64,000 bases of DNA. It comes from Microbotryum violaceum. Lineage: Eukaryota. The notes beneath the pieces are model-generated. The model was not told the DNA's origin and did no database searches. It saw only the letters and a list, made by a program, of their open reading frames with translations. The translations under genes and the position numbers were made by a program. This document shows, piece after piece, positions 4,289 to 51,243 of this stretch. Location of the stretch: the NCBI GenBank assembly GCA_001244265.2, contig CDLV01000009.1, positions 1,736,001 through 1,800,000 of the forward strand. Reading direction: 5' to 3'. Position 1 is the stretch's first letter. Every line of letters starts with the position of its first letter.

Positions 4289-13455
<9,167 letters not shown>

Positions 13456-29106: not shown

Positions 29107-39159
<10,053 letters not shown>

Positions 39160-44373: not shown

Positions 44374-45105
44374 TCCGCGAATCGGGATGCTTGGCAGATT
44401 TTGTCTTGTTATTTTCGCACATCATGGCCTTTCATGTCTTTACTTAGGTTCGAGTTCGTATCCGCACATCGACATATATTTCCAGCCACGTAATTCTAGC
44501 AGCCCAGAGCTTCACTACTCTTTGACTTTTGTAATGCAATATCGAGCTTGTCTTCGGTGTCGGGAGCACGTGGTGATGGATTATCCGGGCGGGCCCACAT
44601 CCGCGCCTGGGTGAGTGTAAGGTATGCGCCTCTGATGTGCATAAAATACAATCTGTCGTTCTTGACCACTAGACTAAAAGCAAGTCGTAACTAGAACTCG
44701 GCAGTTCTAGCTACTCAGAGGCTACTTATAGGGCTGTTCTGTAAGGCATCCCCTCTACCTACAAATAAAAAATAAAAAATAAAAAATTACAGTGAGCTCG
44801 TCGAATTGCGAAAAACGTGGCAGTCGGCAAGAAAATGTTCTCAAAGAAAACATTGCACATTGAAAAGATCTTGCTATTCTGTATACACTCATCCTCGAAC
44901 GCTCTCAAATCTTTCCGCCCCTCTCCGCCCCGGCGTTGTGTGCGCACCTAATAATGATCCGGACCAAATCGAAAGCTCTCTCGAAAGGCGGAGGGGGTCT
45001 TCGACCCCACGCTGCCGACCTCCCCGCCTTTCGCCGCTTCACCCATAACCCTTCTTCGGCCCGTGTTCCCGCCAGCCCCCACGAAGTGCGCTGAGCGATG
45101 CAGTG

Positions 45106-46341
45106 ATGCCACCGCTTGCTGCTGCTCTACCACGCGGCAATCCAGCCGGGGCGCCACACTCCGCAAACGAACCTGTTCCTCTCCACACATCTACGCCGAC
45201 GTCCGCTGCACCGACGACGACCGAAGACGCCACGAGCCGATGGGAAGCACATATACGGTCTGAATGGCTTGCGCCGCCCGCTCCATTCCCGTCTTCTTCC
45301 TCGTCCTGTTCATCAGTAGTATCGATTAGAGGCAGCAGCGACAGCTCGGCCCGAACCGGCGGCCGCAAAGGACGTCCGCTTGACCCTGTGTTTCGGGAAA
45401 GACTGCGCCAACTGGAACAAATGCTACGATTGGACGGAATGGGGACGGAAGAGGGCGGTTCAGATGGTGCGAACGTACCGACGGGATCCAGGTCTCACGC
45501 GCCCGCTGCTACAGCTGCCGTCGTCGAGGATGCTGAAAGTCCGAATCGTTCGGTCGAGGTCGGGGAGACCCCTGACGGAGGAGATGTGATCGGAGTGGTC
45601 ACAGGACGACGCAACGAGCTCAAGAAGGCGAATGAGGTAGGTCTCCTATCATGATGGGGCCTGTGCGGGTCCGGTGCGGTGTCGATATTGCAGATGTTGA
45701 CGCTTCGCAAACGGTGGTGTCATCATGATCCCATTTCTGCCAGGGCATTCTGCTGGCGTTCAAGCAGGGTAGAGTTCTGAGAGAACCGCTTCCTCTGTCT
45801 TTGGTTGTAAGTTGTCTTGCATCTTATTCCGTCGGCGTCGAATGATTCCCGAGTTTGAACGCTGGCCGTTTCTGTTCATTCTCTCTCTCGCGCTCGCGTT
45901 GTACGAGCAGACGGCATTATTGTATCGGTCTTGGTAGGTGTAACCCGTCAGAATCAAAGTTCGAATTATTCCATAGCTTTGCTCACCTTTAGTCTTATGC
46001 CATATCTTCTCTCACTTCTCAGGGAAATGGACGGGACCATCCCCGTCGACTACGTGGCCCCCATATCGGGGAATCCGCTACCGAATGGATCGTCCCAAGT
46101 TAGAGCAGGTCAGGATCACATCAAGCACACAGACACAGACACGGGAAAAAGGGGGGAGACCCCGTTACCCAAAGTTTGCAGTGGAGCGGGAGGCCGGTCA
46201 GAATGGCCAGGCGTACCCGGGGATGCAGGACAGGACGGAGCACAATTGGGAGACTTGAGGCCAAAGATGAAAATGGATCGGTTGAAAGGTGCCAGATGGC
46301 GCACCGAAAAGGAGGTAGCGAGCGGTAGCGATGTGATATGA
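45106..46341 (+). CDS. DUF4050 (Gag1-like clamp)-type protein, 4 exons inferred
   Basis: Spliced read ELKKANE|GILLAFKQGRVLREPLPLSLV|TALLYRSW|EMDGTIP resembles the PL.L..V...L...W..DG motif; family assignment from memory. Confidence 0.6.
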
Positions 46342-46491
46342 AAGCAATATCTCTTTGCCCGAGCCACTGGCACCGGCCGAGAGACTGGTATGGCAAGAGC
46401 CAACGTATTCTCTCCTGAGTGCCTCGTTCGTACATGCTTTTACAGCGGCCCATTTCAATCTCCCCCGAAACGACATGTATCCTACCTTATC

Positions 46492-47064
46492 CTACCGTGC
46501 AGGTGGTGCGACCTGTTGTGGGCAAGAGCATCGGAACGCGGTCAGTCCAAATCACGCCCAGCCCGAAGAAAGACAAAAGAGGGAGCGCACCAAGACGACG
46601 CCATCCCCTCGCACGAACAACATGTCACAATTGCGTTTGACGGTCTGCAGTACAACCGCGACAGAGTTTTGAGGTCAGAGCCGAGGGTGTGTGTAAATCG
46701 AATGTGGTGTTGAAGGAGAGAGTGACTCACTCTTACGAGACTTTGATCCGACTGTGCGTCGTGGTCAACGACGTAGATGGTTTCCTCGACATCCGAAAGG
46801 ACCATATTCATATGACCGTCGTAAGCCTGTAAAAAAAGGCGAGCCAAGGCCGTCAACGCCATTAGTGATATTGATATGGATAAGCTAAGGGATGCTCGTT
46901 TCCAGCTGCTCGTTGACGAAGCTGATTGATGCCGCTGGCTCGAACTCGACGTGACTGACATGCAAGACCCCCCTCAGCTCGCGATCGCCCCTCAGCTTGA
47001 CAAAGACTCGCTCAGACAATGAGACGCGGATCAGGTCGAACGGTTCGACGATTGTGTCGGCCAT
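46492..47064 (-). CDS. LSM3: U6 snRNA-associated Sm-like protein LSm3 (4 exons)
   Basis: [45 protein letters not shown]...|[17 protein letters not shown]. Confidence 0.96.
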
Positions 47065-47519
47065 CGTGTTCACAGGTTGGGACGTCAGAACGAACAGGGG
47101 GAGCTGCTCGCCTTCTCCAAGCGGATTGAAAAGAGCGCGAAGGAAGGGCTTCACTGTGTAAACAGACGGGAAGGCGAAGAAAGCGTGTTTCGTCAGGTCA
47201 AGTCACTGGCCGGCCACACGGGTGGGAGCCTGCGTATTGGAGCGTACGAGGTTGGCAGAGGTTGGCAGAGGTTGGCTGGACTTGGGGGTTGATGCTGAGC
47301 GCTGAGCCAAGCCGTCCCCGCGCCGCCGCTCCAGCCCAGCTCCAAGCCGGGACTACAACTCTAGTCCTATTTGGAATTGGGTGCGCTAATGACTTAATAG
47401 CATCTCAAACCATGCTTGGTCTCTCCCGCGCTCGACCGAAACGCCCTTTCGTTGTCTGGCACTCCTCTGTGTTTGCATTGTTGTACCGAGCCCATTCGCA
47501 GCCGTCCGGGACTAACAAC

Positions 47520-48885
47520 ATGGGGAAAGTGAGTTTGCTGATCGTCTTGGTCCACAATGCAGGTTCACTGTGTCGCTTCTCGTGCGGTAGCTGATCCACT
47601 TGAGCGCGTCGCTCCTTCGTCCGCTGCAGTGTACGTGACCTCACCGCCTCCAGCACAGCCCCGTCCTCCATTACTACAGCCTCTACCACATGCATCTTAC
47701 GCTCACGATCCACAAAGGCCCCACCGGCCAGGCTCACTGCGGGAGACGGAGCCACGATCGTTCGAGTGCTCATAACCCCTTCCGTGTTGCCCTTTGCACA
47801 CAGATTACTGCGACTACTGCGACGTGTTTCTCACTCACGACAGTTCTTCTGGTAAAATCCAGCGTTATAGCGGAACTTGACGGCATGTGATCACCGCGAT
47901 TGACTCACCCCCTGAACGAATCGCAGTGCGCAAGGCCCACAACTCGGGCCGTAACCACCTTACCAACGTTCGAGACTACTATGCGTGCAAGTGTTGGGCA
48001 CTCATTGCTGACTCGATGCTCTCGGTGGCTAATCTACGATTTGCACGTGCTCACAGCTCTCGGGTCGGATAAGGCTCAGGACATGATCGATCAGATTGCT
48101 CGCAAGTACGAAGGCGGCCCCGGTGGTGTTGCTCGAGTGCTACCCATGGGACCCGGCATGATGGGCAACATGAATGGGCCTCCACAGAGTAAGCACCACA
48201 CCTCGATACTTCTTCGTCTCTCTCTCTGCTGCCCTTCCCACGACCGGCCCCTCACGCCGACTTCATTCCCGGACTCTAGTGAGAAATTTCGGAGGACCCC
48301 CACCCGGCTTCCAACCCGGTGGACCACCTTTACGATTCGGCAACGGCCCACCTCCAGGCTATGGTGCTCCCCCGCCTCCGATGCGTGGACCTGGTGGATA
48401 CCAGAATCAAGGACCACCACAAGGTGAGTGTGCGAATATCATCCTGTGCCCCGAGTCGAGCTCGTCAAGGTGCTGACAGCCTTCGCATAGGCTATCAAGG
48501 GGGATACCAGGGCGGCCCGCCCCCTCCCCAACTCTCGGGGCCACCACCAGGTATGTACCTATTACCACTGCATCCGACTGCTCGGTCATGTGCTGATTGC
48601 TCGGTCGAGCCGGCCTACACTCAGGGTTCCAACCGCCGCCGGGGATGCAACCACTGCCGAACTTCTTCCCGCCGACCTCGGGTGCGTCGGCGTCCGCTGC
48701 CCCAACAACATTCGATACACCTCCTTTACCGACACCCAATGGCGGAGCCGCCCCTCTTGTCAAGTGCGTGCGAGATCATCCCGTTCCCGCACAATACTTG
48801 GCCATCCCACTAACCGTTTCGAATTTCATTCTCTGTTCACAGTGGATTGAATCCGGAACGAGCCAGAATGCTGGGTCTCTTGTAA
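47520..48885 (+). CDS. YHC1: U1 snRNP protein C (multi-exon)
   Basis: [30 protein letters not shown] zinc finger, Pro/Gly-rich tail, ends GLNPERARMLGLL*. Confidence 0.93.
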
Positions 48886-49123
48886 CAAGGATTTGGGAAG
48901 CAAAGTTTCGCGCCCTTCATCGGCGTTTGTAATCATAGCCTAGCAGGCCTAAACAAAGATATGGGGTTGTTCACTCTTGTCGAAAGGCTTTCACCGCCAA
49001 GTCAGCTCGAGGCTGTCCGGGTATGCCGTACTTTGCACGATCGTCATGACCAGAGCAAAAGAAGTGCCCCAAAAAGTCTAAATTCCAGCAGTCTTGGTTT
49101 GGCAACACAGCGGCGAATCGTTC

Positions 49124-51243
49124 CTACACCACCGCAGCTTTGACCGTCTTGCCACGTTTATGCTTGCCGACTGAGGACTTGTTTCCCGCGGTTGCTTTGG
49201 CGCCACCTCCGTTGCTCTGCAGTATTGCGTTCTTCTTTCTGTTCGTCTCTTGTCTCTTACCGAACCCATCCGCGAGTTCCATGTTACCCATTCTCTTGGC
49301 CATCGAAACCGCGCTCAGCAACTCCAGCACAGCTTGTTCCGGTAGCTCAAGTTCGTGCAATTTGGTATCTGCGTACCCCAAAGACGTTGAGGGGTGGTCA
49401 ATGACCCGCGCAAAAACGCACTTTCTCGAATCGAAACCCAACCGCTCAAAGACGTACTAATACGTTCCTCAAGCGCCTGAACCAACTCGACGTCTCCTTC
49501 CGTGACGACGGTAATACTCGTACCTTTGCGACCCGCACGCGCGGTCCTACCAACCCGATGAACATAATCATCCGGAACCCTGGGTACTTCCCAATTCAGC
49601 ACGACTTCGACTTCGGGAATGTCCAATCCTCGACTGCCGACGTCAGTCGCGATGAGCAGCGGTACCTGTTGCCTTCGGAACGACGACAGCGACTGCAATC
49701 GCTCCGATTGGGAGAGATGGGAGTGGAGGGCCGTACAAGGAATCGGATTCGGTAAATGACCGAGAAGTGAGGTGAACAGTGCGGCGGTACGGCAATGCGG
49801 CACGAAGAGGATCGTTTGGGGTAATCGAGGGGTCGAAGCTTCCTCGGCAGAAGGCGAACTGGCACGTTTCGTTCGTTTCAATGGTCGTTCCCCTCCACGA
49901 CTTTTGTGATTCAAAGTTGAAGCATCAATACTGGCTTGCACGGGTTGAGCACCGGTGAGGTCGCAGAGATTCAACAGGAGGTAGACGAGGTACACCTCGC
50001 GTACTTGGGAAGGAATGAAAAGATATCGTTGCACCAACCCAGCCGGAGTCGTGATTCTGATCATTCCAGAAAGAGCTGTCAGCTCGGACGTTCGCATCGG
50101 GGCGTTGTAAGATTTCGAGAGATTCGAGTGCTCACGCATTCCGAGAAACGTGGATGAACGGCGGGGTTTTACCGGGGACCGTCTGGCGCTTTTGGAGAGC
50201 CATCACGGGTTCCGTCAAAGTGGCGGTGAAGAGCAGACTTTGTCGTTGAGAGGGCAACTGATCGACGAGGAACGCCAAATCAGGTGCGAATGTCGGCGTC
50301 AACAGCCGGTCGGCTTCATCAAGGACCTGTATGAGTTCAATCGACGAGAGAAGGTCATGGCCGAGTTCGAATTTTCCAGTTTCGTCTGTTCGTCAATCGA
50401 TTTTCGACAGTCTAGCATCGGACTTACGAGATACTTGACCTTGCCTAGGCTCCATTCGTCCTTGTTGCTCCTGATCAAGTCAACCAAACGGCCCGGTGTA
50501 GCGATGATGACGTGGGGTCTTTTACGGAGTTCAATCGCTTGGGCCATCATGTCCATGCCTCCGACGATGACGGCCGAATGAAGGTTCACGGCTGCGCCGA
50601 TGACCCTGAATTGTTCCGAAATTTGAAAAGCGAGTTCCCTGAGTAGGTAAAAAAGGCAAAGTGAGCTGAGATTTCCCCTACGCTGCAATCAAGTCAGGTA
50701 CTGACCGTGTCGGAGTGAGAACGAGAGCAAAGAAGCCGTGCGGATCTTTGGCGAAGTCTTGCATGATGGGAAGGGCGAAAGCGATCGTTTTGCCCGAACC
50801 TGTTTGCGCACTTCCGATGCAGTCGCTGCCTGTGAAAAGACCAGGAGTACTAAAATGAGCATTCGACGGGATAGCGCCTGATACGAGATGGGTTGTGGCT
50901 GCGACGAACCCGCTAAAATGGGAGGAATGCACGCCGCCTGTACCTCGGTCGGCTGTCGAATCGACATGGCTTGCAGGGCGTTGCACAAGAATCGTTCTAC
51001 ACCCAGCTGTGCAAACGAGGTCGGGGTCTTGGTCGTCGTCGAAGGAAGCTTCTCCGTCACGGTGGCCGTGGTCGCCGTGGTCGCCGTGGTCGCCTTGTTC
51101 GTCGCGGCATCCTCGATTGAAGCAGCATGTTCCAACGTGACTCGTGAGGTCGTAGCCACGGGCATCGATCTCGAGGGTGGCTGTGTTATCGGGTCGCTCA
51201 GATCCGACTGGGTATCGGATGAAGAATCGCTCGACATGTACAT
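49124..51243 (-). CDS. DBP8: DEAD-box RNA helicase Dbp8/DDX49
   Basis: Q motif [61 protein letters not shown]. Confidence 0.92.

Follow-up and report, generated by a model that had tools for sequence, protein, structure and literature searches.

The window analysed here is a stretch of 64,000 nucleotides from Microbotryum violaceum (assembly GCA_001244265.2, contig CDLV01000009.1, positions 1,736,001 to 1,800,000 of the forward strand), and all positions given below are counted from its first letter. Between 47520 and 48885 on the plus strand of this anther-smut DNA lies the window's single gene for U1-C, the U1 snRNP protein C (Yhc1/SNRPC orthologue, zf-U1). It is divided into nine coding exons, the second of which very probably consists of one nucleotide, T47630, placed between two ordinary U2-type introns (Table 1). 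With T47630 included, the spliced model of nine exons is open and gives a coding sequence of 636 nt, that is, 211 codons and a stop. The start codon stands in a good context (AACAACATGG), and inspection by eye found no upstream ATG in the 80 bases 5′ of it. A tblastn search with a Leucosporidium creatinivorum homologue (P0121) gave this locus as the sole clear match in the window (E 4.8e-26), the next match having an E of 0.019. The DNA runs X10-X13 contain 0.97-1.00 of the window's words, and therefore the window assembly is reproduced.

Table 1. Exons and introns of the U1-C gene in the window, with the evidence for each.
Feature	Position	Strand	Evidence
Exon 1, coding part, ATG GGG AAA	47520..47528	+	Window sequence and organism-C contig
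Intron 1, 101 nt, GTGAGT donor, CTGAT branch-like motif 35 nt from 3′ end, pyrimidine-rich tail, CAG	47529..47629	+	Removal inferred from congener cDNA
Exon 2, single nucleotide T, first base of codon 4 (TAT, Tyr4)	47630..47630	+	Window sequence, congener contig, scan of gap, frame
Intron 2, 173 nt, GTACGT donor, CTCAT branch-like motif 31 nt from 3′ end, CAG	47631..47803	+	Alignment of both organism-C contigs starts from 47804
Exon 3, 48 nt, first half of zf-U1 zinc finger	47804..47851	+	Contig joint 47851/47927
Intron 3, 75 nt, GTAAAA..CAG	47852..47926	+	X6 and X4 contigs
Exon 4, 60 nt, second half of zinc finger	47927..47986	+	Contigs
Intron 4, 70 nt, GC-AG type (GCAAGT..CAG)	47987..48056	+	Joint 47986/48057 with ends GC..AG, X6 and X4
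Exon 5, 132 nt	48057..48188	+	Contigs; 100% identity to P0001 over 43 aa
Intron 5, 91 nt	48189..48279	+	X6, X4 and X1 contigs
Exon 6, 144 nt, Pro/Gly-rich	48280..48423	+	Contigs and spliced model
Intron 6, 67 nt	48424..48490	+	X6, X4 and X1 contigs
Exon 7, 60 nt	48491..48550	+	Contigs and spliced model
Intron 7, 74 nt	48551..48624	+	X6, X4 and X1 contigs
Exon 8, 139 nt	48625..48763	+	X1 contig piece ends at 48763; spliced model
Intron 8, 79 nt, GTGCGT..CAG	48764..48842	+	Inferred from contig pieces with an end at 48763 or a start at 48843; C-terminus matches ..NGLNPERARMLGLL of P0001-P0003
Exon 9, coding part including TAA stop	48843..48885	+	Window sequence and spliced model

The elements around exon 2 can be read directly in the window. 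The coding part of exon 1 (ATGGGGAAA) takes up 47520-47528 and is followed by GTGAGT at 47529-47534; the sequence ...CCGCTGCAG (CTGCAG) ends at 47629, a T stands at 47630, and GTACGT occupies 47631-47636; finally, ...GCACACAG (CACAG) ends at 47803, and from 47804 onward the sequence reads ATTACTGCGAC / ATTACTGC / ATTACTGCGACTACTGCGAC. An earlier note, made from the sequence alone, had proposed a one-base exon from these elements, and all of them are present as it described. It had also maintained that exon 1 and the zinc-finger exon are out of frame, which was borne out, in that joining 47528 straight to 47804 leads to a stop at codon 49. Its further claim, that T47630 restores the reading frame and gives MGKYYCDYC, agrees with a congener RNA contig, with a scan of the gap between the two exons and with the N-termini of homologues.

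We compared four sequencing runs with the region 45000-51000, and judged their RNA nature from spliced contigs, as none of the 15 runs listed is recorded as RNA. The contigs of X4 and X6, from an organism that we call organism C, are spliced RNA, because GT-AG and GC-AG intervals are skipped in the U1-C gene and in both neighbouring genes. Organism C is a congener, about 2-4% divergent in exons (two U1-C exons differ at 3 of 132 letters and at 4-5 of 142 letters). X3 has the appearance of low-coverage DNA and does not bear on the junction. In the U1-C gene, the X4 and X6 contigs contain the joints 47851/47927, 47986/48057 (GC..AG), 48188/48280, 48423/48491 and 48550/48625, the last three of which were also found in X1, a run that matches the window at 100% identity. 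The X6 contig begins right at 47804, with no loose end. The X4 contig (538 letters, depth 291) has, before this position, 53 letters that fit nothing in the stretch and that end ...ATGGGGAAAT. Thirty of these 53 letters were read, and we take them as those adjoining 47804; the far-end reading would put 24 letters (the T and 23 more) between AAA and ATTAC and would not restore the frame. The letters read, ending ...CAACAATGGGGAAAT, consist of a slightly diverged form of the window's 5′ UTR, then ATGGGGAAA and exactly one T, after which the zinc-finger exon begins. In other words, the congener mRNA is ATG GGG AAA TAT TAC TGC, encoding MGKYYC, which is exon 1 with exactly one extra T. The earlier note had suggested a search of RNA for the T-containing junction, and this junction, with AAAT directly before 47804, is what the congener contig holds. 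The same contig places the congener 5′ UTR at least 43 nt upstream of the start codon. In the window-identical run X1 there is no contig between 47412 and 48014, and so none over the junction; the spanning contigs come from organism C only.

In the window AAA is followed by G and ATTAC is preceded by G, so that removal of one intron, whatever its type, cannot produce AAAT-ATTAC; therefore, the T must come from inside 47529-47803. We scanned this 275-nt gap and found three AG-N-G[TC] sites (C47605 before GC, T47630 before GTACGT and T47767 before GCTCAT), and T47630 is the only T in the gap with AG and GT as its flanks. We dismissed T47767 (AG-T-GCTCAT) as the exon, since it would shorten the second intron to 36 nt and since GCTCAT matches none of the 12 donors supported by RNA in this region. 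The 12 RNA-supported introns in 45000-51000 are 67-133 nt long, with donors that are GTRNGT-like apart from one GTAAAA and one GCAAGT, and 11 of them contain a YTNAY motif, which in most cases lies 14-46 nt before the 3′ end. Introns 1 and 2 match the pattern of these nearby introns, each having its own donor, branch-like motif and acceptor signals, and a single 275-nt intron would be twice as long as the longest of them.

The frequency of such motifs was counted in 128 kb (both strands). The bare AGTGT occurred 106 times, corresponding to 0.23 expected per 275 nt, and the splice-like YAG-T-GTRNGT occurred 4 times, corresponding to 0.0086, a background that is probably overstated, as the count takes in ordinary exon ends. 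Other YAG-N-GTRNGT sites in the window, at 9223 on the plus strand and at 39134, 37929 and 27443 on the minus strand, resemble ordinary exon ends or non-coding matches; they were rejected as further one-base exons, being without an upstream pyrimidine tract or coding context; the one read in detail, 27443, was dropped. We also searched the window for a second copy of intron 1, intron 2 or the 5′ UTR and found none beyond chance matches of 12-13 nt, so that there is no sign of a repeated intron element.

Next, we turn to the protein. The translation of exon 5 (43 residues, 48059-48187) finds three proteins among five candidates, and all three are from Microbotryum: M. silenes-dioicae (P0001, 100%), M. 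saponariae (P0002, 98%) and M. intermedium (P0003, 95%). Judged by its sequence, the window protein is a member of the U1-C / zf-U1 family (PF06220), the Pfam test having been made on orthologue models. The zf-U1 match covers positions 5-38 of the 38 in the profile in P0002 (63.5 bits) and 1-38 of 38 in the L. creatinivorum protein (69 bits), and it takes in the second half of the profile only in P0003 (24.9 bits). Residues 17-52 of P0002 (YCDYCD...RDYYA) are residues 5-40 of the window model. The T-containing window model has C6, C9, H24 and H30 after M-x-K-aromatic-aromatic, and we take these four residues to be the zinc ligands of U1-C.

We assembled a set of 163 homologues, consisting of the best 120 of 248 matches and 43 from a second search. 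A start of the form M-x4-C-[DE]-[YF]-C was found in 113 of the 163, and the exact N-terminus MGKYYCDYC in 15, including Leucosporidium, Rhodotorula and Puccinia. The pair of residues before the first Cys was HY in 95, YY in 26, FF in 9, YL in 8, DY in 2 and VF in 1, with no motif in 22; the pair NY occurred in none of the 141 motif-bearing homologues among the 163 retrieved. Over its first 60 residues the window model has 54 ungapped matches with L. creatinivorum (P0121), 50 with Rhodotorula (P0007) and 47 with Puccinia (P0129), and with the T it reaches 112.6 bits against a profile built locally from the N-termini of 113 homologues. The start MPKHYCDYC is found in 65 retrieved homologues, mostly from mushroom-forming fungi, and it comes from ordinary models; therefore, the same exon is not suggested in those fungi. 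Eight proteins (P0006, P0011, P0013, P0014, P0018, P0022, P0024 and P0028) start MPSRYLCDYC, which is one residue longer than M-x-K-Y-Y-C and has Leu before the first Cys. Six of the eight are from named Sporobolomyces species, and the other two lie on contigs of about 1-1.5 kb and may be transcripts. The protein of Meredithblackwellia eburnea (P0004) starts MGKDYCDYC, its Asp4 being what a G instead of a T before AT would produce; this residue may be real, or the model may have been forced around a similar junction.

None of the three public Microbotryum models starts MGKYYCDYC. In them MGK is never joined to YYCDYC, and introns or a wrong frame are read instead. The M. silenes-dioicae model starts inside intron 2, its beginning being a letter-for-letter match to window intron 2 in the wrong frame, and its zinc finger is out of frame, which is why Pfam found no zf-U1 match in it. 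From the letter-for-letter match, the window belongs to M. silenes-dioicae or to a relative almost identical to it. The start of the M. saponariae model also lies inside intron 2, in frame, and this model continues through the GC-AG intron. The M. intermedium model starts MGK, is then spliced out of frame to a point in intron 2, and returns to the frame through retention of intron 3. The GC-AG intron 4 is read into, and not spliced, by both the M. saponariae and the M. intermedium models. Three independent failures at one place are indirect evidence and fit a shared one-nucleotide exon that gene prediction cannot foresee. Such an exon would account for the errors in all three public U1-C models of Microbotryum, among them the loss of the zinc-finger domain in one, and comparative gene sets for Microbotryum would mis-score U1-C.

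To look for relatives of the junction, we scanned metagenomes with the pattern [G/T]AT-TAY-TGY-GAY-TAY-TGY-GAY-GT, which gave 70 loci with 71 matches, 34 of them G-type and 37 T-type. Twelve matches continue as U1-C; all are T-type, and since ATG-xxx-xxx-T is contiguous in them, these genes are intronless there or the sequences are cDNA. None of the 34 G-type matches was U1-C, most of them representing an unrelated bacterial gene, and among the 70 loci there was no U1-C locus with an acceptor at the site equivalent to T47630. In three of the loci (L022, L023 and L035), the first 25 residues after Tyr4 are identical to those of two Puccinia proteins, P0129 and P0091; ATGGGAAAGTATTAC is contiguous in these loci, so that they are cDNA or have no intron there.

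Other splicing routes were also followed. Retention of intron 1 brings the first stop at codon 25, and a 34-nt first intron (47529-47562), which was also tried and rejected, brings it at codon 51. The earlier note had itself named an alternative in which the mRNA uses the weak donor GTTTGC at 47533 together with the acceptor at 47803, so that the protein would start MGKVNYCDYC and no one-nucleotide exon would be needed. This route keeps the frame and stays open as far as the same stop, and RNA spanning the junction is from organism C, with no contig there from the window-identical run. However, the congener cDNA has AAAT before ATTAC and not AAAGTGA, GTTTGC matches none of the 12 RNA-supported donors (GTRNGT-like, GTAAAA or GCAAGT), and the NY that it would place before the first Cys is the pair missing from the 141 motif-bearing homologues. 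In addition, the MGKVNYC model scores 103.9 bits on the profile of N-termini, 8.7 lower than the model with the T. With both the cDNA and the profile score against it, we regard this alternative as highly improbable.

Another explanation is that the T in the congener mRNA reflects a difference in the congener's own DNA, with an exon 1 that ends AAAT and a single intron, and that the window copy is frameshifted by mutation or by an assembly error, its AG-T-GT being coincidental. Organism C is known here from RNA contigs alone and its exon 1 could end in this way, and the bare AGTGT is not rare, at 0.23 expected per gap of this length. We nevertheless consider the explanation very unlikely. The window's words recur almost completely in the DNA runs, which reproduce the assembly, and tblastn gave no second clear match in the window besides the U1-C locus. 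The models of three Microbotryum species, each from an independent assembly, are broken at this one place. The full splice-like motif has an expectation of 0.0086, and each of the two half-introns has its own branch motif and pyrimidine tail. That T47630 is a true exon of the U1-C gene is, in our view, very probable.

If T47630 is an exon, the acceptor at 47629 and the donor at 47631 could not be occupied at once, because the two sites are one base apart. Most likely, intron definition would serve to recognise introns 1 and 2, and the two would leave in succession, in the manner of recursive splicing, as in the combined model put forward by Guo and Liu for APC11 (PMC4674806). Were intron 1 to be removed first, AAAT|GTACGT would be formed and spliced next; were intron 2 to go first, CAG|TATTAC would remain as an acceptor. 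Either order would lead to the same product. No special RNA structure was found in 47500-47830 (fold z = +1.10, with 85 of 100 shuffles folding at least as well). Skipping of the T brings the first stop at codon 49, with four exon junctions downstream, and we infer that such a transcript would be a target of nonsense-mediated decay. The 275-nt gap of the U1-C gene offers a compact natural substrate for studying how the spliceosome handles an acceptor and a donor that are one base apart. At the ratchet points of recursive splicing no exonic bases are left, and very long introns are subdivided. The U1-C arrangement is like a ratchet point in that an acceptor is followed by a donor, the sites have to act in turn and the first step recreates a splice site; it is unlike one in that a single base stays in the mRNA and neither intron is long. 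Such recursive splicing is also named in the Discussion of the paper on the Arabidopsis APC11 exon (PMC4674806).

One-base exons are very rare but already in print, and what the U1-C case adds is the host gene, the position at codon 4 and the annotation errors. Among the papers listed by literature searches there was no report of a one-base exon for Microbotryum or for U1-C. In Arabidopsis thaliana, APC11 has a constitutive 1-nt exon between ordinary introns that annotation missed and that keeps the frame (Guo & Liu 2015, PMC4674806). The exon was tested by GFP fusions in protoplasts, and the authors argue for intron definition and sequential (recursive) removal (PMC4674806). The APC11 and U1-C cases are alike in that the 1-nt exon has an ordinary intron on either side, was overlooked by annotation and is required for the frame. 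They differ in that APC11 is a plant gene whose exon was tested with GFP, whereas the U1-C exon belongs to a basidiomycete spliceosomal protein, lies in codon 4 and is supported by the RNA contig of a relative only.

Among fungi, CYP621A of Fusarium has an AG-G-GT 1-nt exon inside an intron of about twice the usual length (PMC12940212). That report describes the exon as deduced from a phase mismatch and an intronless homologue and as confirmed by SRA reads, states that nearly all public models are wrong, and counts it as the second known example and the first from a fungus (PMC12940212). A fungal 1-nt exon, an over-long apparent intron and wrong public models are thus common to CYP621A and U1-C. 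However, CYP621A is an ascomycete P450, its exon supplies the second position of a Gly codon, and the exon was shown to be conserved in 24 gene sequences (PMC12940212). A long-read annotation of Coprinopsis cinerea gives 13 genes with 1-nt exons, the omission of which breaks gene models (PMC12230235). C. cinerea is an intron-rich basidiomycete in which 1-nt exons recur, and its likeness to the U1-C case lies in the models that break when the exon is omitted. The U1-C gene would represent a one-base exon from a third fungal lineage, the Pucciniomycotina, in a core splicing gene, at codon 4 and with a GC-AG intron in the same gene.

U1-C helps the U1 snRNP to recognise 5′ splice sites. The earlier note had speculated that the exon, besides being real, could act as an autoregulatory sensor. 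In that case inclusion of the T would depend on U1 snRNP/U1-C activity: the gene would read out the cell's capacity for 5′-splice-site recognition through the timing or strength of U1 at GTACGT, and skipping or retention, with the resulting stop and decay, would feed back on U1-C and tune its level, the GC-AG intron being a conceivable second checkpoint. We consider such a sensor very unlikely. It would be in keeping with the early stop and the downstream junctions that follow from skipping, and with the presence of a GC-AG intron and of a GTAAAA donor in the same gene. The X6 contig, moreover, stops exactly at 47804, a position that the X4 contig crosses; this may stem from a branch in the assembly graph, or from many other causes. 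In human cells, the production of U1-70K involves a non-productive isoform and NMD and depends on U1C and on 5′ splice sites adjoining a 3′ splice site (PMC3798272). This is a U1C-dependent splicing feedback within the U1 snRNP that works through an alternative 3′ splice site, which neighbouring 5′ splice sites activate (PMC3798272). The likeness is that a U1 snRNP protein is controlled by splicing; however, the regulated pre-mRNA there is that of U1-70K and not of U1C, and no micro-exon takes part. In the U1-C gene described here, the contigs contain no alternative isoform, whether skipped or intron-retaining, and the 5′ region has no unusual RNA structure. In addition, the simplest expectation is that more U1-C leads to better use of GTACGT and hence to more productive mRNA, which would be positive feedback and not homeostasis.

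Two further features were seen at the borders of the gene. About 250 nt upstream of the start codon, inspection by eye revealed a short tandem repeat on the plus strand (47249-47278), with GGTTGGCAGA twice and then GGTTGGCTGG. At the other end, an X4 contig starts at 48843, in the last U1-C exon, and continues to 50637, into a convergent minus-strand gene whose introns appear as CT..AC. A contig that covers two genes does not prove a single transcript, and the 3′ ends of U1-C and of this neighbour may abut or overlap.
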